NCBI GenBank assembly: GCA_963710605.1
Contig: CAVQBA010000005.1
Span: 256,001 to 320,000, forward strand
From: an uncultured cyanobacterium
Lineage (GTDB): Bacteria > Cyanobacteriota > Cyanobacteriia > Cyanobacteriales > Cyanobacteriaceae
Length of the DNA stretch: 64,000 nt
Direction of reading: 5' to 3'
Shown: piece by piece, positions 3,788 to 21,189 of the stretch
Position numbering within the stretch: position 1 is the stretch's first letter
Layout of the letters: every line of letters begins with the position of its first letter
The notes under the pieces: model-generated
Seen by the model: the letters and a program-made list of their open reading frames with translations, nothing else
Told to the model about the DNA's origin: nothing
Database searches by the model: none
Translations under genes and position numbers: made by a program

Positions 3788-4630
3788 ATGAGTATTGGGC
3801 AAACAAACAAAGCAAAACGAGAAACAGCCGAATGGATTGAGCGTTTAGCTCGATTTGGCTATGCCGCTAAAGGAGTTGTTTATACTATCGTCGGAATATT
3901 AGCTTTTCAAGCCGCTTTTAATTGGGGTGCAGGAGATGTTAAAGGTTCAAAAGGTGCATTACAAACTATAGGTAGTCAACCTTTCGGTAAAATTTTATTG
4001 TTTTTAGTTGGGGTTGGTTTAATCGGTTACGTTATCTGGCGGTTTGTACAGGCTTTTTTCGATCCAGAACACAACGAAGATGGTTTTAAAGCTTATGCCC
4101 GTCGTTTTTCGTACATCATCAGCGGTGTTATTTATGGTACGTTAGCTTTTACTGCTTTTAGGATTGTTTTTAGTGGTGGTAGTAGCTCGTCTTCTGGTAG
4201 TAGTGGTGGAGGTAGCTCAGAGCAAACGGCTAGTTTACTTTCACAACCATTTGGGCAATGGTTAGTTGGTTTGGTGGGGGCGGCTTCGGCGGCATATGGT
4301 TTTTATTCTATTTACCGTGCAATTAAAATTAAGTTCCGTAAAAAGCTCAAAACTGAACAAATGAGTGCTGATCAAGAAAAATGGATTATTCGTATTGGTA
4401 GATTGGGTTTGATTGCTAAAGGTATTGTCTCTTTAATTATTGGTTACTTTTTTGTACAAGCGGCTCGCTCAGCCGATCCTAGTCAAGCTAAGAGTACAGA
4501 AGGTGCATTAGAAGCAATTCAACAGTTACCTTTTGGTGGTTGGTTGATGGGGTTAGTGGCGTTAGGATTAATTGCTTATGGTATTCATTTACTAGTTCAA
4601 GCTCGTTATCGTCGTATTTCTCCTGCATAA
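3788..4630 (+). CDS. DUF1206 family multi-pass membrane protein
   Basis: Repeated RLARFGYAAKGVVY / QPFG...LL / RLGLIAKG units. Confidence 0.85.
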   Translation: MSIGQTNKAKRETAEWIERLARFGYAAKGVVYTIVGILAFQAAFNWGAGDVKGSKGALQTIGSQPFGKILLFLVGVGLIGYVIWRFVQAFFDPEHNEDGFKAYARRFSYIISGVIYGTLAFTAFRIVFSGGSSSSSGSSGGGSSEQTASLLSQPFGQWLVGLVGAASAAYGFYSIYRAIKIKFRKKLKTEQMSADQEKWIIRIGRLGLIAKGIVSLIIGYFFVQAARSADPSQAKSTEGALEAIQQLPFGGWLMGLVALGLIAYGIHLLVQARYRRISPA

Positions 4631-4737
4631 TTACGGATTCGTTATCGATTGATGATATTGAGCAAATCTTGATTTATGATTGAGGATAGTAACAACTATT
4701 GTTTGGTTACAGATTAAAGAAAAATATCTCAAGTAAT

Positions 4738-7325: not shown

Positions 7326-7841
7326 CTACCATCTAATATCAGAGGGAAACTCCCCGTAAAATAGAGAAACTGGTAGGTTATTTTTTTCTGATCGTTTCAG
7401 TGTTTCTAAATTGTGAAGTGCAATTCTATTAGTTGGATCTTTTTGAAGAACTCGCTCATAAAGATAAATTTGACGAGGAACATCATCATATATTAAAGCG
7501 GCTTCAAAGATCATGACTAAGGTATTATTAGGTTCTATTTGTTTTGCCCTTTCTAGTAAAGAGAAACATTCATCATCATCTCCTTGTATCCATAAAATCC
7601 AACCTAAAACAATTATAGCTTCTAAATCTCTAGGATTAAGTTCTAAAATTCTTTTTGCCATCGGAATTATTATTTCATCAGAGTCTAATGATTGATTAAA
7701 TGCTAATATGACTAATGTTTTTAATTCTCTAATATTAGTATTTTTTTGTAGTAAATTTTGGAATAAATCCATAGAAAAAGAATTTTCATTATTCGCCAAA
7801 TTAGTTACTAATTGTTTTAATGTATTCATTTTTTTATTCAT
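7326..7841 (-). CDS. TPR-repeat protein, putative immunity protein
   Basis: TPR-like helices (AKRILELNPRDLEA, ERAKQIEPNN, ERVLQKDPTN); begins 3 nt after a toxin-tip remnant. Confidence 0.65.
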   Translation of the reverse strand: MNKKMNTLKQLVTNLANNENSFSMDLFQNLLQKNTNIRELKTLVILAFNQSLDSDEIIIPMAKRILELNPRDLEAIIVLGWILWIQGDDDECFSLLERAKQIEPNNTLVMIFEAALIYDDVPRQIYLYERVLQKDPTNRIALHNLETLKRSEKNNLPVSLFYGEFPSDIRW

Positions 7842-7844
7842 TTT

Positions 7845-8003
7845 TTATAGGGGATGTGAACAATGGCCTTTAGGAACAAAAGCAGTTCCAATCTCATAAT
7901 TTCCAGTAGGTGTTAGTTGATATCTAATATGTACTGGAACAAGAAGACCACTAGTACTTTGAATTTGTGTAAAAACTCTAGCGCCTTTTTCTTCCACCAC
8001 CAA
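7845..8003 (-). pseudogene. orphan toxin C-terminal tip remnant
   Basis: Alternative frame LVVEEKGARVFTQIQSTSGLLVPVHIRYQLTPTGNYEIGTAFVPKGHCSHPL* fused out of frame to the Rhs core. Confidence 0.5.
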
Positions 8004-9670
8004 ATTGGCTCATTAATACGTCCCTCATAAGTATCACGACGAGTAAACCTGCCAACGCTAGGATTATAAAAACGTTGTCGCAGATAATACTCATCCAAAT
8101 TATCATCAAACTGCTCACCAGCATAACGATAACTATTCTCTACCCTATTAGTCGTATTAATCAGATTTCCATAGGCAGTATAATCATAAACATCAACCAC
8201 ACCACCAACATAATCAGTTAATACCCTGACACTACCCAAACCATCAACCAAATAGACAGTTAATTCTTCATTGCGAGACATTGAAATCAAATCATTACCA
8301 TACAAATACTCAACCGCTAACTCACCATCAACGTATTCGGATAATACCTGAGCATAAGCACGATTCTTGTCAATCAGATAATCAGTACGCACACCATCTA
8401 CAACCTGAGAAACCTTAATCCCCTCATTGTCATACTCATAACTAATAGAAATACCATTAGGGAGAATAACCTCAATCAAACGATTCTCATAATCCCAATC
8501 ATAGAGAGTTTCCTCATTACCCTCAATTACCTTAATCGTATTACCATTATCATCATACTGATAAACCTTCGTTACACCATCAATAGTCTCACTCAATAAC
8601 CAATCATTATCATTGTAAGCATAAGTAGTTGTACTTTCAACAGAATCCACCTTAGATAAACGATTACCTACCGCATCAAGAGTATATTCAATCACCCTGC
8701 CATCATTGACATCACCAGCATCAGTAATAGTTTCAGAGATAAGACGATATAAGTCATCATAAACATAATCGACAACTCGTTCATCATTCTCGGATACTCG
8801 CAGACGATGCCCAACTTTATTCAACGTATATTGATAACTAGAAATAACTTCATCAGCTAACTTATTCTCTAGGAAAGTTAGACGATTTAATCGATCGTAT
8901 TCTCTAGTCTCGACAACACCATTAGGTAAAACAGTCGCTAGTAAATTATTAACTCCGTCATACTCATAATCAGTTACGTTACCCGACTCATCAGTAACCG
9001 TATCGAGACGATTCCAAGCATCAAAAGTATAGTTAACGCTGTTATTAGGAGTCGTCACCGAAGTGCGATTACCCGCTACATCATAACTGTATTCGATCGT
9101 ATTTCCACTAGATAAATATGCACCAACAGGATCAATACGAGCAATTAATCGGTTTCTGGCATCATATTCATAAGTTGTAACACCACGCTCTTGGATAATA
9201 GACTCCATTAAACCATCGATCGTATAGGTATATTCAACCTTGGTAGTATCAGGGAAAGCCTTTTCAATTAATCGATTGCGATCGTCATAACTGTAGATAA
9301 TAGCATCACCATTAAAGTCAGTGTAACTAATCACATTACCAACTTCATCATAACCAGTAACAGATGTTTGCTTTTCGGGTAACTCCACACCTACACGACG
9401 GCTTAACTTATCGTAAGTGAAATAAGTACGATTATCATTAGCATCTTCTTGCCATATATTTCTGCCTAACTCATCATAACCATACTCAGCTCTAATTTCA
9501 GTGGGATTATTACTATCCTGATTGAGATATTGAATTACATCAGTTAGACGACCAAGATTATCATATTCATAATCGATTATCTTACCTTCTTGGTCTATAG
9601 TCGAAATTCTTCTACCTAACTCGTCATAGACAGTTTGAACAGAAGTATCATCAGCAAAAAGTGTTTCCTT
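8004..9670 (-). pseudogene. Rhs/YD-repeat core fragment (no start; truncated before DPxG)
   Basis: YD repeats open from ~9670; core motif YRYAGEQFD...YYLRQRFYNPSVGRFTRRDTYEG breaks off at INEPI. Confidence 0.9.
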
Positions 9671-9673
9671 GCG

Positions 9674-10304
9674 TTAGTTTTTAGTTTCATTCACTCTAAT
9701 TACATTTTCATCAATACAACTACTAAAATTATGTAAAAAAAATTACATGAGCTCCTCTGAACTGTGAATATAATGTCCATAAAGGTGATGGTAAGTAACC
9801 GAGCGGTTTATCTAAACTTGTAAAATCGTTATCAAATTTCAGTCTTCGTTGTTGATACCAACCAACTTGTTGAAAATATATATCTTTTTGTTTAACAGAA
9901 TGTCCATGTTCATGGTTATCAATGGAGTTAAGTATTTGTGCTTGAACAGCAAAACCAAATCTTCCTTGACTATATTTTAACCAAAGCTGATCTACATCTG
10001 TTAGTTGATGACAAGGTAATTCTCCTTGTAAATATATTTGAGCTTCTCTTTGACCTAAAAAATCAAACATGAATCGTCCATAGTATCCTTCTTTTCTTAT
10101 ATAATTTAGAACTAATTGATTGTAAATAAACGCCGTTTGAGTATCAGCTTGTTGCCATTGTTTATTACTCAAATAATATTCTAGTTGAGAGTAATCAATT
10201 TTTTGTTCAAAAATATTCCAATTGAAAAATAATCTCATTAATAGAAAAGAAATACCTAGCGATAAAGATAATACAAGCCAAGTTCTTATTTTAAGTATTT
10301 TCAT
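9674..10304 (-). CDS. membrane-anchored GUN4-like domain protein (copy 1; homopolymer frameshift near 3' end)
   Basis: IDYSQLEYYLSNKQWQQAD...LPCHQL..VDQLWLKYSQGRFGFAVQ...PLGYLPS; removing one base of the A8 run at ~9735 restores FLHNFSSCIDENVIRVNETKN*, matching copy 2. Confidence 0.85.
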
Positions 10305-10428
10305 AAAAGTTAATTGCCAACAAATAATTTATCAATTATGGTGTAACATCAGATAATCGATTCGACAGTTGAACCTCCAGATAGAATATCTAATCGGTTT
10401 AAACGAAAAATCTAATTCAAAAAATGTT

Positions 10429-11109
10429 TTAATGTGAGTCTTGAGTCTCATTAATTCTTATTGCACTTTTATCAATGCAACTTTTAAAATTATCCAAAAA
10501 GGGAATAGGAGAAACATATTGACGTTGTATTACTATAAAAAGATTTCTAATCTCGCTGTATTCTTCTGATATAAAATAAAGCATTATCCATGAAGTTGAT
10601 GGTAAATAACCAAGTGGTCTACCTAAACTGATAGAGTAGTCATAATCGCTAAATCGATGTGGTAAAGTCTCATCCCAGCCAACTTCTTGTATAAATATAT
10701 CTGTTTTAAAACCTTCGATTCTACTATTACGGATAGAGTCCATTATTTGTGCTTGGATTGAAAAACCAAATCTCCCTTGGCTATATTTCAACCATAATTT
10801 ATCTATTGTTTTTAATTTGTGACAGGGTAATTTTCCTTTTTGGTAAATAAAAGCTTCTTTGTTAGCTAAGAAATCAAATGCTATTTTTCCTAAAAATCCT
10901 TCTTCTCTCATATAATTAGAGACTAGTTTTCTATAGATAAAAGCTGTTTCAATATCTGCTTGTTTCCATTTTTGACTACTTAGATAATTTTCAAGTTGAG
11001 AGTAATCAATTTTTTGTTCAAATATATGCCAATGAAATAACCAACGCACAAAGATACAAATAAAGCTTAATAAAATTAGCAAAAAGAACTTTTTTTTAAG
11101 TATTTTCAT
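10429..11109 (-). CDS. membrane-anchored GUN4-like domain protein (copy 2)
   Basis: N-terminal hydrophobic segment; IDYSQLENYL...WKQAD...IDKLWLKYSQGRFGFSIQ...PLGYLPS. Confidence 0.88.
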   Translation of the reverse strand: MKILKKKFFLLILLSFICIFVRWLFHWHIFEQKIDYSQLENYLSSQKWKQADIETAFIYRKLVSNYMREEGFLGKIAFDFLANKEAFIYQKGKLPCHKLKTIDKLWLKYSQGRFGFSIQAQIMDSIRNSRIEGFKTDIFIQEVGWDETLPHRFSDYDYSISLGRPLGYLPSTSWIMLYFISEEYSEIRNLFIVIQRQYVSPIPFLDNFKSCIDKSAIRINETQDSH

Positions 11110-11141
11110 TAACGTTGATTTATTATACTAATAATATTTAT

Positions 11142-11406
11142 TCAAGCAATTATATCTCCTAATCTCTTTACAAAAGTAGTTTCATCACTGTGAGACTGGG
11201 AGATTAAATCCCAACCATAAACATAACTTACTGATAATTCACCATCAATGTACTCTTCTAACACCTGAGCATAAGGACGATTTTTATCCAATAGATAATT
11301 AGTCGTAACCCCATTAACCGTTTGGGATGTGCGGATATTATCCATGTCATAGGTATAATCAATCACATCTCCATCGGCAGTTTGTACCTGTATAAGTCGA
11401 TCGTCT
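11142..11406 (-). pseudogene. Rhs core fragment fused to toxin tip (VKRLGDIIA)
   Basis: 11172-11406 duplicates 12953-13187. Confidence 0.85.
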
Positions 11407-11459
11407 TTATACTAAAAATAAATATTATTGAACAATCAAAACTCCAACTATTCTTTTAT

Positions 11460-11985
11460 CTAACCAGGAGAAATTAAGATAAATTGTTTTTGTTTTGCGG
11501 CTTCTTCAAAAAAATCAACGACTTGAACATATGTAGATACCACCGATTCAAATTCGTCGATTGTCCAACCACCAGGACTAGGATAAGGATAAGATTCTAG
11601 CATTATTAAATACTTCAGAGGTAAAACGAGATCTTAAACGTTTGGTGTAATTTGCTTTAGTTCTGTGTAAATTTTAACTACTTCATTAGGTTTTAAAAAA
11701 CGTACTTTACCATAATCTACCTCGTATTTTGTTTCAGTTCCTCCGAAAATAACTTTAGCCAGAAATGATTGATTATTTGTTTTATCAATGGCATATTCTT
11801 CAGTCAGAATAAAATGAATTGCTTGCCAATCTTTACCAAGATTTGAAATAATAATCTTGACTAATTAAATCCTGATAAAAATCAAACAATTTGTCTAAAT
11901 CTTGGATGTCTAGTCCAAAAGGATGTTTCTGTAATTTATTGATATTTTTTAATGTCACACGTACATACTTTACTTCTATTCCCAT
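11460..11985 (-). pseudogene. YfbM/DUF1877-family protein, frameshifted; putative immunity gene
   Basis: Joined frames give MGIEVKYVRVT...LGKDWQAIHFILTE...VIFGG...YGKVRFLKPNEV...FFEEAAKQKQFILI. Confidence 0.7.
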
Positions 11986-12051
11986 ATTTTTATCTATAAA
12001 ACAATGTGGTTTAGTTTGCATAAATGTACTATATTATCCTAATCATGTAGG

Positions 12052-14295
12052 CTATATAAATCCTAACTTCGTAGTTGCAATACTTGTTGTAATCAAACTT
12101 ACCAACAGTACGGTATTGATTTGTGTCAATGAAGGATTTGATGCCATGTCTATAAGTCCTCTACTTCTAGCTAAAGGATTAAGAGAAGTATAGTTACTTG
12201 AAATAAGAAGAGGTCTTACTCTTTCTCGTAAATTTTCTGGGCGAATTACTCCTAGTAAAAGTATTTTATCTTTGTTATCCAATTGATTGGTATAAAAAAT
12301 AATTCCACCAACATTAAAAATGATAACTTTTCTAGGGACTTCACCAGGTGCGCCTCTTGTTATGGTTGCTTCTATTATATTTGGTGGTGTTTTCCATACG
12401 TTATCAGGAAGATAATTGCGATATGTTAAAGCATATTCTCCTAATGCAAAAGTTGCTTCTATTATTCCGTTTGGGCTGAGAGGTTTAATGTCATTAAAAG
12501 TCTTCTGTGTTTTGTTCAAAATATCTGGTTTTTTACCTAATACTAGTCTGCCAAAACTTAGGTCATCTGTTGGATGATTCTGCCCTGTATAAAGGTTGAA
12601 CAACATCTTCTACTCCATATCCAAATTCTTGAGAATATAATCCACTAGGATCAATGTAAACAACTGGGTTTGCATTACCATATAAATACTTATGTAAAGA
12701 AAAAGGACTATTAATATCACCCTCATAAGTATCCCGACGAGTAAACCTTCCTACCGATTGATTATAATAACGCTGTCTGAGGTAATACTCATCCAAATTG
12801 TTATCAAATTGCTCACCAGCAAATAAATACTGATTCTCTGCATTTCCAGTCGAATCAATTAAACTACCGAAAGCATCATAATCATAACTAGCAACAATAT
12901 ACCGATTCTCATCAGTTAAAATTCTCGTACTACCTAAACCGTCAACCTGATAAAAAGTAGTTTCATCATTACGAGACTGAGAAATTAAATCCCAACCATA
13001 GACATAACTTACCCCTAACTCACCATCAACATACTCCTCTAACACCTGAGCATAAGAACGATTTTTATCCAATAGATAATTAGTCGTAACCCCATTAACC
13101 GTTTGGGATGTGCGGATATTATCCATGTCATAGGTATAATCAATCACATCTCCATCGGCAGTTTGTACCTGTATAAGTCGATCGTCTAAATCCCAAACAT
13201 AGATAGTCTCCTGACCATTTTGCGTAACCTTAACAGTATTTCCATTCTCATCATACTGATAAACCTTAGTAATATCATCACCCGTTTCTGTCAACAACCA
13301 ATCATTCTGATTGTAAGTATAGATAGTTGTACCTTCAACAGAATCAGCTTTAGTTAAACGATTACCTACAGCATCATAAGTATAATCAATAATCTGACTA
13401 TTATTAATCTTCTCTTGAGTTAGGCGATATAAATTGTCATAATCATACTCCACAACTCGTCCATCATTTTCCTCAACTAAAATACGATTACCAATCTTAT
13501 CCAGAGTATATGTATAACTAGAAACAATGACATTATCAACAACATTCTCCAGATAAGTGAGACGATTGAGTAAATCATAATCCCTGTTTTCTGTCACACC
13601 ATTAGCAAACTCAGTTGTGACTAACTTACCAATACCGTTGTAAAAATAAGTTGTGGTATTGCTATCAATATCTGTAACAGTATCGATACGATTCAAATTA
13701 TCATAACTATATTGAGTATCACCATCAGGCGTTAAAACTCGAATACGATTACCAGCACTGTCATATTGATATTCGATCGTCTTACCACTAGGTAAGTAAA
13801 CACCGTTTGCATCAGTACGAGAAATTAATCTGTTACGCTCGTCATAACTATAAGCGGTTACACCAACGTTATCGGTAACTGTAGCAATTTGTCCTATATT
13901 GGTATAAGTGTAAGTAACTTGACTATTATCAATATAATATTCACCGATAAGACGATTGACCGACTCATAAATATATTCAGTACGATTACCTCTTTCATCA
14001 ATAGTAGCCTTAGTCTGCCCATCTTGATAATATTCAGTTAGAGTACGAGGATTATCAGCAAGATAAGAAGGATTACCATCAGGATAAACTACTTGTGTCC
14101 AATCAATTGTAACTTCTGTTTTCGTTTCATCAACAAAAGAAATAAAATCAGCAAGGGTGTCTATTTCATCAGGATAAATAGTCTCAACTAATTGCCCTTT
14201 CTCATCATAACGATATTCTGTACGTCTATTTAAAGCATCAATTACCGCAATTTGTTGATTGAAATCATTGTACTTATAACGAGTGATTAGAGATC
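12052..14295 (-). pseudogene. start-less Rhs/YD module with DPSG junction and PD-(D/E)xK-like toxin C-terminus (frameshift at ~12583)
   Basis: Open YD frame from ~14295 to NANPVVYIDPSG|LYSQEFGY; removing one G joins to ...KKPDILNKTQKTFNDIKPLS. Confidence 0.85.
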
Positions 14296-14361
14296 GTATT
14301 AAGTATCATTTTAGTCAAGTTTTTCTTGTTAGCATAAACAAGATTATCCTCACCAAGAATA

Positions 14362-15141
14362 TTAATTACATTTTTGTCTTCGTAAATATTTTTCTTGTCC
14401 ATATTTATTAAAATTATCCAATTTATATTTAAGACTATTTATTTTATCTAGATCGGATAAATAAAATATAAGAACAATATCTTTAAATTCGCTATTAATA
14501 CAAGGTAAAAAATCTTGAATACTCTCTTCAACGTCATAACCAAATGCACCTAAGGAATTTTCAGTCATCCATCTACGAGAAGGCAAAAACCCTGGTTTTG
14601 TTTGTGGTTCTATATTTTTAAAATTATTAGGGTTTTGTAAAAAATATTTTCCTTTCCAACCAAATATCTGATTTAAGTTATAATCTTCCCATGATATTCT
14701 TCTAACTAATTCATAGTAAGGTATTTGTTCTATTTTTTCTTCTGGAAAAAGAAGAATTTGTCCTCTGGGTAAAGCTATTTTAACTTGAGTGGAAAAACCA
14801 AAATATCCATCGCTATATTTAGACCATAATCGATTTATTTTTTTTAGATAATAACAGCAGATACCCTCTTTTTGCATATATCCTGAATACAGAACCCCAT
14901 TAACGAACCAATTTAATCTAGATAGACCAAAAAAAACTTCTTCCTCTACTTGTTTTCTCACAATAGTAGATATTATATTACTAGTTTCTCGATCGGCTTG
15001 AAACCAATCATGAGAGATAAGTGATTTTTCTAAACGAGAATAATCAATTATTTTTGATTGCCAATGATATAAACCTAAAGCAAAAAAACATAGGCTAAAT
15101 ATTAGAAAATAAATTAAAAATTTACGAAAATATCTACTCAT
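14362..15141 (-). CDS. membrane-anchored GUN4-like domain protein (copy 3)
   Basis: IDYSRLEKSLISHDWFQADRET...INRLWSKYSDGYFGFSTQ...PGFLPS. Confidence 0.82.
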   Translation of the reverse strand: MSRYFRKFLIYFLIFSLCFFALGLYHWQSKIIDYSRLEKSLISHDWFQADRETSNIISTIVRKQVEEEVFFGLSRLNWFVNGVLYSGYMQKEGICCYYLKKINRLWSKYSDGYFGFSTQVKIALPRGQILLFPEEKIEQIPYYELVRRISWEDYNLNQIFGWKGKYFLQNPNNFKNIEPQTKPGFLPSRRWMTENSLGAFGYDVEESIQDFLPCINSEFKDIVLIFYLSDLDKINSLKYKLDNFNKYGQEKYLRRQKCN

Positions 15142-15150
15142 ATTACTTTT

Positions 15151-15660
15151 TTAAATATCATTAAGTCTTTCTACTGACTTTCCACGAGAGAAAACATCTA
15201 TAATATCTAAGCCTACGCCTAATCCAGAAGGATAAAATGCTGACTTTACAGTAATATCAAATAAAGCTCCAAAACTAGGGAGTGCATCAGCAATAAAAGT
15301 CGTACAATTATGAGCTTTTTCTCTCGTCAAAAACAAATTTTCATATTTTATCCCAAAAAGATAAAGTAATGTATATGGAGTTGTTGAATAATAATGTGTT
15401 AGATTCGTTAGGTTGTTTTTTAACTGTGTTTTTTGTGCTTCATTATATTTTATGGCGTACTTATAATAGAAATAATTATTATTAACAATTTCACTCAGCA
15501 CATAATCATTTTCATTTTTTATTTCTGGAGTTACTCCTGAAAACGTATATGCTTGCCCATCAACAGCGATAAATGAATGACCTAGAAGATATTTCGGACT
15601 AAATCCAACATAAACAAATACATCATCAGTAGAAGAAGTATTTGGAGCATTTATTGCTAT
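15151..15660 (-). pseudogene. orphan toxin C-terminal domain, permuted papain/NlpC-P60-like (His before Cys)
   Basis: LGHSFIAVDG...HNCTTFIADAL; no credible start, fused out of frame to an Ig-domain fragment. Confidence 0.65.
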
Positions 15661-16290
15661 TACCACGGAATATTTCCACAAACTCGTCACTATCGGCGGT
15701 GGCAATTTCTAGGCTATAGTAATTCAAATTGTCATCGTCAATCGTACCAATAATGTCGGTGGGAGCGGTAATTGTGTTGTTTTCTATACCTGTCAAATCG
15801 AGGGAGACAACAGGGGCAGTAACATCACTACCATCAAAAACTTCAACAGTAATTATATATTCACCGACGTTTCCTGCCTCATCATAACCGTATGCTGTGA
15901 GTTGATATGTACCTAACTCATCAAAGGTAATATTACCGATTCCATAACGATCGAGTTGTATAGCTTGATTATTAACTATTTCAATCTGATTACCTGTGGT
16001 GATATCATCTTCTAGGTTATTAGCAAATAGTTGTAAACCTGTTACACCAACGTTATCAGTGGCTGTTACTTGGAAGGGTATTGTTGAGTTCAGTTCAGCT
16101 TGATATTCTCCATTGACCACAAAAATACTACCAGGTAATAAGTTGACAACAGGAGCGATGTTGTCGGCGGTAACATCAAGAGAAAAGGTTTGTTCGACTT
16201 CTGCTCCTACTTCATCGCTAACTGTAATGGTGATGGTATGATTACCAATATTATCGATCGTCGGTGTCCAACGTAAACGTCCGAAATTGT
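15655..16290 (-). pseudogene. Ig-like/cadherin-like repeat fragment of a giant Rhs protein N-terminal region
   Basis: GRLRWTPTIDNIGNHTITITVSD, VTATDNVGV, AYDEAGN-like, DVTAPVV, IIGTIDDDNLNYYSL. Confidence 0.75.
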
Positions 16291-16359
16291 CAGAATATAT
16301 TTAGCTGTATTTTGCTATAATTACTAAGATCAAAAATCAGAAAAAGAGTTTTATTTTCA

Positions 16360-17256
16360 ATGAGTCAATTTCCTCATGATGACTTTGTTAAAGAATATTT
16401 ACCCGAATTAATATCTAATTATGGGCTCGTAAATTCGGGAAAGAAAATAGCTTCTCAGACGAAAGAAATAGATGTCTTTTTTCAACCTGATAACAAAGTA
16501 AATAATAATTCAAATCAATTAGGTTTACTGGCAAGGTTATTGAGAACAACTTGTTTATTTGAGGTGTATCGAAATTCAGTTACAGTTAATCAAATTAACG
16601 AGTGTATCGGGAAGTTAGTTGACTTGACGACATTATTAGGTAGAGAAAGTAAAAAGAGCAAAAATCAGATTGAAGCAGTAAATTTATGGATTTTAACACC
16701 AACTTTATCACAAAAAATATTAAACTCTTTTGAAGCAAGAACACAAGAGGATTGGGAAGAGGGAATTTATTTTTTACCTTCAGCTTTATCAACGGGAATA
16801 ATAGTTGTACATCAACTGCCAGTAAATAAAGATACTCTGTGGCTAAGAATGTTAGGAAAGGGTAAAGTACAAGAGTTAGCCATCGAAGAATTAAATGCAC
16901 TTCCAAAGGATAATCAATACAGAGACAGTGTTTTAGAGTTGGTCAGTAATTTATTTACAATGCTACAATTAAACCAACAAAAAAAGCAAGAGTTAACCTC
17001 AGAAGATAGACAATTAGTTATGAAATTATCACCTATTTATACTGCTCGATTAAATGAAGTCAGACAACAAGAAGCAACTTTACTAATTGTTCGTCAATTG
17101 AAAAGAAAGATAGGTGAGTTATCTCCTAATTTAGAAGCAAGAGTAATAAGTTTACAAATCGACATTTTAGAAAATTTAGGAGAAGCCTTATTAGATTTTA
17201 ACTCGATCGATCACCTGATTAATTGGTTAAATGAAAACGACAAAGGATTAAAATAA
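16360..17256 (+). CDS. Rpn/PD-(D/E)xK-like protein with C-terminal DUF4351
   Basis: HDDFVKEYL...EIDVFF...LFEVYR; C-terminal LIVRQLKRKIG...LENLGEALLDF...LINWL. Confidence 0.8.
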   Translation: MSQFPHDDFVKEYLPELISNYGLVNSGKKIASQTKEIDVFFQPDNKVNNNSNQLGLLARLLRTTCLFEVYRNSVTVNQINECIGKLVDLTTLLGRESKKSKNQIEAVNLWILTPTLSQKILNSFEARTQEDWEEGIYFLPSALSTGIIVVHQLPVNKDTLWLRMLGKGKVQELAIEELNALPKDNQYRDSVLELVSNLFTMLQLNQQKKQELTSEDRQLVMKLSPIYTARLNEVRQQEATLLIVRQLKRKIGELSPNLEARVISLQIDILENLGEALLDFNSIDHLINWLNENDKGLK

Positions 17257-17292
17257 AAAAGATCTGCTGAACAACGATTTAAAAGGCATAAA

Positions 17293-20074: not shown

Positions 20075-20836
20075 ATGAATCAGTATCTACTAATCATTTT
20101 ATTATTATTTGTCAGTGGCTGTCAGAGTTTGCTCACGGGTAATATTCATCTTAAATATGGAAATCCTAGTCAGGCAAGTATTAATAATATCAACAATTAC
20201 TTGCTAGAAAAACCACAATATGCAGTATCTTATAATTGTCAGAATGGTACAGCTAATTGGGTTAGTTGGAAACTCGATCGTACTTGGTTAGGTAATACCG
20301 AGCGTAGTGATGATTTTAGACCAGATCCAGATTTACCGATCGATTGTTATGCTGTTAGTCCGAATGATTATCGTGGTAGCGGATACGATCGAGGACATCT
20401 TACACCATCAGGCGATCGTACGTCAACTGCTTTAGATAATAGTGCTACTTTTTTAATGAGTAATATGATTCCTCAAGCACCTTCAAATAATCGAGAAGTC
20501 TGGCGAGAATTAGAAGAATACAGTCGAGATTTAGTTAATGAAGGCAAAGATTTATATCTTGTTGCCGGTGGTAATGGTAAACTAAAAACGATCGCAAAAG
20601 GAAAAGTAGTTGTACCTAGATATACTTGGAAAGTAATCCTCGTTTCCAATCAAGGTAACTACGAACAAACGATCGCTATTTTAATGCCGAATAATAACAC
20701 TGTCGCTCGTACAGATTGGGAAGATTATATTGTTTCTGTCGATGAAATAGAAGCACTGACAGGATATAATTTTTTCTCCAAACTACCCAATGATACTCAA
20801 AAACAACTTGAAAGCAAAATCTATCAATTCAATTAA
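20075..20836 (+). CDS. nucA: sugar-nonspecific DNA/RNA endonuclease (NucA type), lipoprotein-like N-terminus
   Basis: SGYDRGHLTPSGDR, TFLMSNMIPQ, VWRELEEY; VSGC lipobox-like. Confidence 0.9.
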   Translation: MNQYLLIILLLFVSGCQSLLTGNIHLKYGNPSQASINNINNYLLEKPQYAVSYNCQNGTANWVSWKLDRTWLGNTERSDDFRPDPDLPIDCYAVSPNDYRGSGYDRGHLTPSGDRTSTALDNSATFLMSNMIPQAPSNNREVWRELEEYSRDLVNEGKDLYLVAGGNGKLKTIAKGKVVVPRYTWKVILVSNQGNYEQTIAILMPNNNTVARTDWEDYIVSVDEIEALTGYNFFSKLPNDTQKQLESKIYQFN

Positions 20837-21189
20837 GTTTCTACCGCTACGGTATGTAAAACAATCCATTCATTATTAGATGATTTACCTACTACATAGA
20901 TATCAATATTAACTTCACCAATCCGATAAATTTTTAACTCAGTTAAGTTAGTTTTCAGCCATTCTATTAATGCTTGGTATTGCTTTACTTCTCTATTCTC
21001 CTCTTTTCCATACCAAGATTTAGATTGAATTGCTTTACTAAAAAATCGATCGATATCAACAGTTTCAGCATCTTCTAAATTGAGCTTATCTAAAGTATCC
21101 CATCTTTCTAACTCCCAAAGTTGATCACTTTCACTACACCACCATAAATCTTCGATTAATTCTGATAATTGTTTAAGCATTATTACCAT
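20833..21189 (-). CDS. nuiA: nuclease A inhibitor
   Basis: LWWCSESD, L..LK.YRIGEVNIDIYVVG, terminal VET; convergent with nucA. Confidence 0.88.
   Translation of the reverse strand: MVIMLKQLSELIEDLWWCSESDQLWELERWDTLDKLNLEDAETVDIDRFFSKAIQSKSWYGKEENREVKQYQALIEWLKTNLTELKIYRIGEVNIDIYVVGKSSNNEWIVLHTVAVET

Follow-up and report, generated by a model that had tools for sequence, protein, structure and literature searches.

A 64,000-nucleotide (nt) stretch of the genome of an uncultured cyanobacterium (assembly GCA_963710605.1, contig CAVQBA010000005.1, positions 256,001 to 320,000; hereafter the window) carries on its minus strand, from 16300 to 7326, a broken Rhs array, in which open reading frames (ORFs) and Pfam and NCBIfam matches define modules with differing tips and partners. 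Three genes of this array encode proteins that join a transmembrane (TM) helix to a GUN4 domain (TM-GUN4), and each is preceded on the same strand by the end of one and the same family of Rhs toxin domains, as a preliminary description of this DNA had proposed. GUN4 is a cofactor of chlorophyll synthesis. We regard it as probable that the region is a decayed Rhs toxin/immunity array, and that the TM-GUN4 proteins are cognate, membrane-anchored immunity proteins against an envelope-acting, probably lipid-cleaving Rhs toxin. This reading draws on domain identities, folds, relic toxin tails, a gene order found in three genomes and a set of controls. The source genome (an assembly of 3.93 Mb in 7 contigs, 85% complete) is referred to as G000, with contigs C1, C4, C5 and C6; other genomes bear G-numbers and the loci fetched bear L-numbers.

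Toxin ends ahead of the TM-GUN4 genes

The toxin domain ahead of copy 3 of the TM-GUN4 genes is whole, and its stop at 15151 lies 9 nt from the copy 3 start. This much of the preliminary description stands, but the domain is detached from its Rhs core and lies out of frame after an immunoglobulin (Ig)-like fragment of a giant protein. What is left of the copy 2 module, after loss of the remaining core and nearly the whole toxin, is a 249-bp core piece fused, as had been claimed, to a 9-residue toxin tail that stops 32 nt before copy 2. The relic ahead of copy 1 starts at 10402 and, with the single frame change anticipated for it, ends in a second part that stops at 10336, 31 nt before the copy 1 start.

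Both short remnants were assessed with position profiles made from 14 homologous toxin tails, the window toxin excluded, which were run over 7.86 million six-frame genome positions. The copy 2 tail ranked first among these positions when a stop was required within 12 codons, and the copy 1 relic ranked second, with only the genuine toxin scoring higher. The chance of each match is about 2-3e-5 per given 120-nt stretch, and these figures are somewhat flattered because the profile columns were picked with the relics known. The same profiles detect a toxin tail ahead of the TM-GUN4 gene of G439 and none ahead of the lone TM-GUN4 genes of G519 or G392.

A phmmer search with the toxin domain against 1.84 billion representatives returned 16 matches including the query, and a profile search of longer proteins added two relatives. 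In the family alignment a conserved His precedes a conserved Cys. Cys119 (15304-15306) is invariant in 14 of 14 aligned rows, and of the 13 rows extending to the site of His28 (15577-15579), 12 have this residue, the exception being P0011, which is a fused fragment there; these two residues are the active-site candidates. An AlphaFold2 model of the domain (predicted local distance difference test [pLDDT] score of 82) was compared with 48,161 chains. The best matches were 2if6 (YiiX; Z 9.7, root-mean-square deviation [rmsd] 3.5, 123 aligned residues), 6v98 (TseH; Z 9.1, rmsd 3.2, 126 residues, 13% identity) and 3kw0 (a Bacillus cysteine peptidase; Z 9.1), with rmsd 3.2-3.7 over 123-129 aligned residues for the three, and they were followed by RID, an unannotated Euglena chain, PLAAT4 and DeSI. 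Since Z values of 7-8 are common without kinship, the case for the fold rests on the agreement among the top matches and on the order of His and Cys. We take 15151-15660 to be an Rhs C-terminal domain with, as modeled, a permuted papain/NlpC-P60 fold. The preliminary description had assigned this fold, with His before Cys; the Foldseek check that it had suggested gave no match at E <= 0.001, and it was the structure comparison that yielded the permuted fold. Pfam matches across the toxin family were weak and confined to 3 of 14 members each (best E 3.6e-4 for Lnb_N and 1e-3 for LRAT), PPPDE being a further weak match, and the look-alikes in ESM Atlas were TseH, IcsB_M and Lnb_N. A Pfam match to MComp1 (E 0.0026, below cut-off, 1 of 14 members) was dropped. 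The His-first order is unlike that of Tox-PL-2, Tox-PL1 and Tox-NLPC/P60, which were considered in a check of Cys-first families, and no such Pfam model matched.

The position of the domain at the end of Rhs proteins is clearer in its relatives. It lies C-terminal to an Rhs core, after a DPxG motif, in G439, G890 and 10 of 11 longer metagenomic proteins. In these 10 the motif reads DP[ST]G and is located about 196-213 residues from the end in nine and 114 residues from the end in P0030; for the 11th protein, P0004, NCBIfam identifies the Rhs core. In each of the 12 family members checked, DPxG is succeeded by a hydrophobic helix (Kyte-Doolittle [KD] values of 1.4-2.1, versus 0.3-0.5 in two proteins of a sister branch that were checked).

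All seven TM-GUN4 proteins scanned score above the PF05419 (GUN4) cut-off of 29.2 bits, copy 3 with 60, copy 2 with 84 and copy 1 with 74 bits, and the only structures that a model of copy 3 (pLDDT 77) matches with Z above 5 are those of GUN4 (Z 11.5-11.9), which bears out the identity suggested for the three ORFs. ESM Atlas returned ordinary GUN4 clusters only for copy 3, with low recognition. The three window copies have one hydrophobic 19-mer at residues 8-27 (KD 1.97-2.31) with a basic N-terminus ahead of it, and in all seven proteins a single strong hydrophobic helix lies directly ahead of the core, after 2-7 basic and zero acidic residues. A lipoprotein reading was ruled out, as a lipobox is present in none of the seven. 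Copies 1 and 2 share 51% identity, and copy 3 shares 29-39% with them in partial alignments. Behind their second helix, TM-GUN4 proteins carry some 12 inserted residues.

The LxNxLR bilin-binding motif marks true GUN4 and is absent from paralogs (PMC10156173). It is missing from all seven TM-GUN4 proteins and present in a separate Gun4 gene on contig C4. The absence of the motif, the ortholog on C4 and the membrane anchor ahead of the core rule out that the TM-GUN4 proteins are GUN4 orthologs. Synechocystis GUN4 requires arginines for porphyrin binding (PMC1084334), and these arginines are not at the matching alignment place in TM-GUN4. In a 38-row tree, the seven TM-GUN4 rows fall on one side of a fast-evolving branch (support 93/77); the G890 partner is not in this tree.

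Copy 1 had been placed at 9674-10304. Its start holds, but the ORF as assembled stops at 9729, and the 9674 end is that of a different frame, past eight consecutive T (9735-9742). The off-frame end piece matches the copy 2 end at 13 of 21 residues, and copy 1 is therefore frameshifted, either really or by assembly error; the eight-T run itself may be an assembly error or a slippage site. The window contains 30 A or T runs of 8 or more. The proposal that the partner genes were kept while the toxins decayed thus fits copies 2 and 3, the exception being copy 1 with its late frameshift.

Gene order in other genomes

Overlapping samples of 401, 90, 101, 4 and 171 genomes were searched with the toxin profile and 401 more widely drawn genomes with the single toxin protein, and a motif scan of the genome contig collection gave 8 stretches, 1 of them confirmed. 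Outside the source genome there were two strong matches, in G439 (E 7e-50) and G890 (E 1e-46). Both of these close relatives form the C-terminus of an intact Rhs protein whose gene is immediately followed by a TM-GUN4 gene (two of two other genomes), which is the linkage on which the preliminary description had staked its interpretation. In G439 an Rhs protein of at least 1,194 residues is followed after 52 nt by a TM-GUN4 of 271 residues; the pair in L007 is the same and was counted once. In G890, a locus that was inspected only after the linkage prediction had been stated, a 3,756-residue protein with He_PIG, cadherin, PA14 and RHS repeats is followed after 11 nt by a TM-GUN4 of 216 residues. 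With the window included, a toxin-specific small gene lies directly downstream in 3 of 3 genomes with context, which come from three families. The toxins of the three linked genomes are 38-41% identical and the partners 33-38%, and the gene order has therefore lasted through a long divergence.

Weak toxin matches in G515, G772 and G868 (E 5.5e-10 to 4.5e-4) form a separate branch (100/99), and none of these three distant sister toxins has GUN4 behind it. Those of G515 and G772 share a single-TM partner of about 115 residues (47% identical), which in G772 has no Pfam or NCBIfam match, and the sister tips have no hydrophobic helix. These sister loci (L006/L058, G515:C76; L059, G772:C40) present a second candidate toxin/immunity pair. 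In G868:C384 (L060, 1-2519), a 4,434-residue Rhs protein with a permuted-papain tip is followed by a 153-residue lipobox protein and another Rhs module. The six partner types seen for the toxin group are all envelope-bound by appearance, which fits an envelope target.

Scans of metagenome contigs gave 21 stretches for the toxin pattern and 185 for the partner patterns, and a viral contig scan gave 28, with none confirmed in any of the three. Among plasmids, the toxin query found no relative and the partner query found five records, all partial matches to the GUN4 core. Weak single-protein matches in G071 and G370 were attributed to chance, both being long membrane proteins without the motifs.

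Approached from the partner side, 401 genomes searched with the partner profile at E <= 1e-20 yielded the three window copies, G439, G519, G392 and one tetratricopeptide repeat (TPR)-GUN4 protein, that of G457, which was set aside as not being a TM-GUN4. Other genomes with TM-GUN4 number four, and two of these show the toxin link while two (G519 and G392) do not. The lone gene of G519 (L010/L054) lies after moeA and before a Uma2-like gene, and that of G392 (L011/L055) between rimK and a tRNA-like stretch. Both are 9-10 points lower in G+C than the surrounding loci, and of 23 genomes from the family of G519 a single one has the G519 gene, which makes the lone copies look acquired. The G519 protein nests among toxin-linked TM-GUN4 in the tree (99/95).

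Ordinary GUN4 genes do not share this setting. A wider GUN4 search gave about 150 ordinary matches, and 41 ORFs at 37 distinct loci (the best-scoring ones and some that were short or N-terminally extended, mostly with 1.5 kb on each side) served as a control. An Rhs or toxin gene was near none of the 37 loci, and no helix of TM strength preceded the domain (KD <= 1.38; two ORFs had too little upstream sequence to score). Partner queries likewise found no GUN4 behind the seven other Rhs ends seen in the source genome, five on C1 and C6 and two being the other tips in the window.

A possible mechanism and its alternatives

How might a GUN4 fold confer immunity to an Rhs toxin? One possibility is that a giant surface protein with an Ig/cadherin stalk, a YD-repeat Rhs core and a toxin tip, the architecture seen in G890, is exported by what its neighboring genes suggest is a type I route. 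The tip would then be cut off at the DPxG motif, as expected from known Rhs biology, and the hydrophobic helix of the released piece of about 197 residues may place the His-Cys domain at the target membrane. There, as the analogy with Tox-Act1, YiiX, LRAT and Lnb suggests, the toxin may cut or transfer the acyl chains of phospholipids or of lipoproteins. Within the immunity reading we lean slightly toward this acyl-chain substrate over the alternative, an amide or peptidoglycan. Producing cells and their kin would carry a single-pass protein, oriented N-in and C-out as predicted by the positive-inside rule, whose GUN4-fold domain would face the periplasm and block the enzyme. In the window, deletions would have taken two toxins almost wholly and cut the third from its core while the partner genes stayed, and three divergent variants of the toxin may be what the retained partners protect against. 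On this account, the TM-GUN4 genes that stand alone in other cyanobacteria (G519 and G392) may be orphan immunity genes, which fits the data but is not proof.

Such a mechanism has a precedent in Tox-Act1 of Salmonella, a permuted NlpC/P60 effector with phospholipase activity that is toxic only in the periplasm and is neutralized by a TM protein encoded downstream (PMC12994826). The pairs described here resemble Tox-Act1 and Imm-Act1 in the His-before-Cys permuted NlpC/P60 core, the antibacterial-effector setting and the downstream membrane-bound partner. Imm-Act1, however, has two TM helices whereas TM-GUN4 has one, and GUN4 is unmentioned in the accessible text and the nine supplement files of that paper; moreover, Tox-Act1 is delivered by a type VI secretion system (T6SS; PMC12994826), whereas the toxin here forms the end of a giant Rhs protein with an Ig stalk and has a type I exporter nearby. 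TseH of Vibrio cholerae, with its partner TsiH, is similar to the toxin in fold and in ESM Atlas cluster but is a stand-alone T6SS effector with a different partner rather than an Rhs tip. TseH is toxic in the periplasm.

The array itself is like known Rhs toxin/immunity orphan arrays, with an exchangeable tip after DPxG, a small gene behind the tip and stacked orphan modules (PMC3150448, PMC2935791, PMC3482391). The papain-like toxins tabulated in PMC3482391 are Cys-first, unlike the His-first family described here, and GUN4 was not found in the 300,000 characters searched of the 357,715 in the text of that toxin survey, whose supplements may list neighborhoods. TM-GUN4 shares PF05419 and the GUN4 fold with GUN4 orthologs and with cyanobacterial paralogs, the latter also being without LxNxLR, but differs from both in its membrane anchor, the insertion of about 12 residues, its long branches and its site behind Rhs toxins. 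GUN4 has already been noted as an effector domain in cyanobacterial conflict systems, and GUN4 paralogs have been treated as tetrapyrrole sensors or left unexplained (PMC10156173, PMC1084334, PMC7159879, PMC8195603). A GUN4-fold immunity protein paired with this toxin family was not found described in the full-text literature searched, outside which most subscription papers lie, and the preliminary description had likewise known of no such pairing. The system would thus work like a known Rhs toxin/immunity pair, with a toxin family and a GUN4-fold immunity protein that are apparently undescribed.

Several points weigh against a role in immunity. The linkage is visible in three genomes only, and 17 further toxin relatives from metagenomes and the TM-GUN4 protein P0002 had no accessible neighboring DNA. 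Because one ancestral pairing could explain all of the cases, the three genomes attest that the link was kept rather than that it arose independently. G519 and G392 have TM-GUN4 with no Rhs gene in 16-17 kb, no upstream toxin tail and no toxin match genome-wide. The toxin is under every Pfam and NCBIfam cut-off, the support of 93/77 for the TM-GUN4 clade is under the bar of the tool and its branches are long, and copy 1 is frameshifted near its end. The membrane side of TM-GUN4, periplasm or thylakoid lumen, is a prediction, as are the substrate, binding, toxicity and protection. On balance, the immunity interpretation of the preliminary description is supported.

It is unlikely that the domain is not a weapon but an envelope-remodeling or self-processing enzyme at the tip of an adhesin, with TM-GUN4 as its regulator, perhaps one that senses tetrapyrroles or lipids. 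The domain occupies an exchangeable tip position beside unrelated tips that each have their own small partner gene, and it is rare and patchy among genomes. It is true that YiiX, the best fold match, and the Lnb and LRAT relatives are housekeeping lipid enzymes and that lone TM-GUN4 genes occur without a toxin domain. Chlamydomonas GUN4 keeps porphyrin binding after loss of the bilin-binding Asn (PMC10156173), a point in favor of this reading, but the porphyrin-binding arginines (PMC1084334) are out of place in the TM-GUN4 alignment.

A further alternative accepts the toxin and makes TM-GUN4 its dedicated accessory, a chaperone, loader or activator for the N-terminal hydrophobic helix of the toxin during export. 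The confinement of that helix to the GUN4-partnered branch (12 of 12 members versus 0 of 2 sister proteins checked) would suit such a role, as would the hydrophobic 'greasy palm' of GUN4 (PMC1084334). Deletion of the toxin would leave an accessory without a use, but the reading frames of copies 2 and 3 are open, and so are those of the lone genes in G519 and G392. Moreover, the TM-GUN4 gene occupies the immunity position, and no other candidate immunity gene is common to the loci behind the toxins, which makes an accessory role quite improbable. That TM-GUN4 once landed behind one toxin gene and was carried along without a functional tie is very improbable, for although the loci are few, possibly stem from one founding event and have lone counterparts, the order and the 9-52 nt spacing were kept despite divergence to 33-41% identity, each of the three window variants keeps the arrangement, and sister toxins likewise retain their own partner.

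Immunity by TM-GUN4 could also be one instance of a broader function. Outside its chlorophyll role, the GUN4 fold might be a general toxin- or lipid-catching receptor that holds the toxin helix or an acyl product in the old porphyrin pocket, and the many unexplained GUN4 paralogs that are fused to kinase, caspase or TIR domains in cyanobacteria might be effector sensors or decoys rather than tetrapyrrole sensors. We offer this extension as a speculation that we ourselves doubt.

Array layout, export genes and significance

The features of the array are listed in Table 1.

Table 1. Features of the Rhs array in the window, from upstream to downstream on the minus strand
Coordinates	Strand	Feature	Match or basis
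15626..16300	-	Ig/cadherin-like N-terminal stalk fragment of a giant Rhs protein, open frame of 224 aa	PF05345 He_PIG, 28.7 bits (cut-off 24)
15151..15660	-	Whole permuted papain/NlpC-P60-like Rhs C-terminal domain, detached from Rhs core	
14362..15141	-	TM-GUN4 copy 3, 259 aa, candidate cognate immunity gene	PF05419, model
12563..14305	-	Rhs core fragment with YD repeats and Rhs-associated core	TIGR03696, TIGR01643, PF05593
12052..12609	-	C-terminal domain of the 12563-14305 Rhs module, in another frame, unrelated to the papain-like toxin	
11460..12021	-	DUF1877 gene, broken into pieces; probably the partner of the 12052 domain	PF08974 on 11637-11864
11172..11420	-	Rhs core DNA duplicate of 249 bp, running straight into the toxin tail	92% DNA identity to 12953-13201
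11142..11171	-	Leftover 9-codon toxin tail, same family	Tail-profile rank 1
10429..11109	-	TM-GUN4 copy 2, 226 aa	PF05419
10336..10402	-	Tail remnant of a third toxin from this family, one frame break	Tail-profile rank 2, first 14 codons
9674..10304	-	TM-GUN4 copy 1, 191-aa ORF stopping at 9729; last ~22 homologous codons in another frame (9674-9742)	PF05419
7845..9673	-	Further Rhs core fragment (7913-9673) and remnant of an unrelated C-terminus (7845-8009)	
7326..7841	-	TPR protein after the 7845-8009 remnant, probable partner of the last module	TPR Pfam matches

The stalk fragment at the upstream end resembles a giant Rhs protein on contig C6. The last 50 or so codons of this fragment, together with a DUF4351 gene beside the array (16180-17260), have a copy at C6:894236-895351 with 81% DNA identity, and about 10 related DUF4351 stretches are spread across the source genome. 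It may be that the DUF4351 duplication marks the rearrangement that cut the array. The domain at 12052-12609 has no Pfam or NCBIfam match; by our own reading, its PD...IKP pattern suggests a restriction-nuclease fold. Two further giant Rhs loci are present in the source genome, at C1:228000-240600 and C6:856000-868200. The C1 locus has four modules, one with a HINT-like domain and one followed by a leucine-rich repeat gene. By eye, its first tip resembles a His-first papain-like domain in which Ser replaces Cys, and a small TM gene lies behind it. Elsewhere in the window (20075-21189), genes for a non-specific endonuclease and a NuiA inhibitor converge on opposite strands with a 4-nt overlap.

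The genes around the intact pairs bear on how such giant proteins may leave the cell. In G890 (L065 1845-9048, C2), the pair is followed by a gene for a 257-residue protein and then by an operon of PPIase, C39-ABC and HlyD genes, and in L007 the gene after the pair (4565-4705) is a homolog of the 257-residue gene. The closest ABC and HlyD homologs in the source genome (53% and 43%; C5:243564-249231) are on the same strand as the array, some 14-20 kb further downstream and separated from it by unrelated genes. These arrangements make type I export of the giant Rhs protein a lead rather than a result. Delivery by a T6SS was rejected, TssC not having been found in the 85% complete genome.

Cyanobacteria have many GUN4 paralogs, and to our knowledge none has a tested function. 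If the TM-GUN4 proteins do act in immunity, they would provide the first concrete and easily tested role for a GUN4 paralog, as well as a new immunity fold. The three divergent partners in the window, together with the intact pairs of G890 and G439, make cognate versus non-cognate protection directly testable. Such a role would also add an undescribed permuted-papain family to the Rhs toxins, and would point to contact-dependent antagonism among cyanobacteria by way of giant, probably type-I-exported Rhs proteins.

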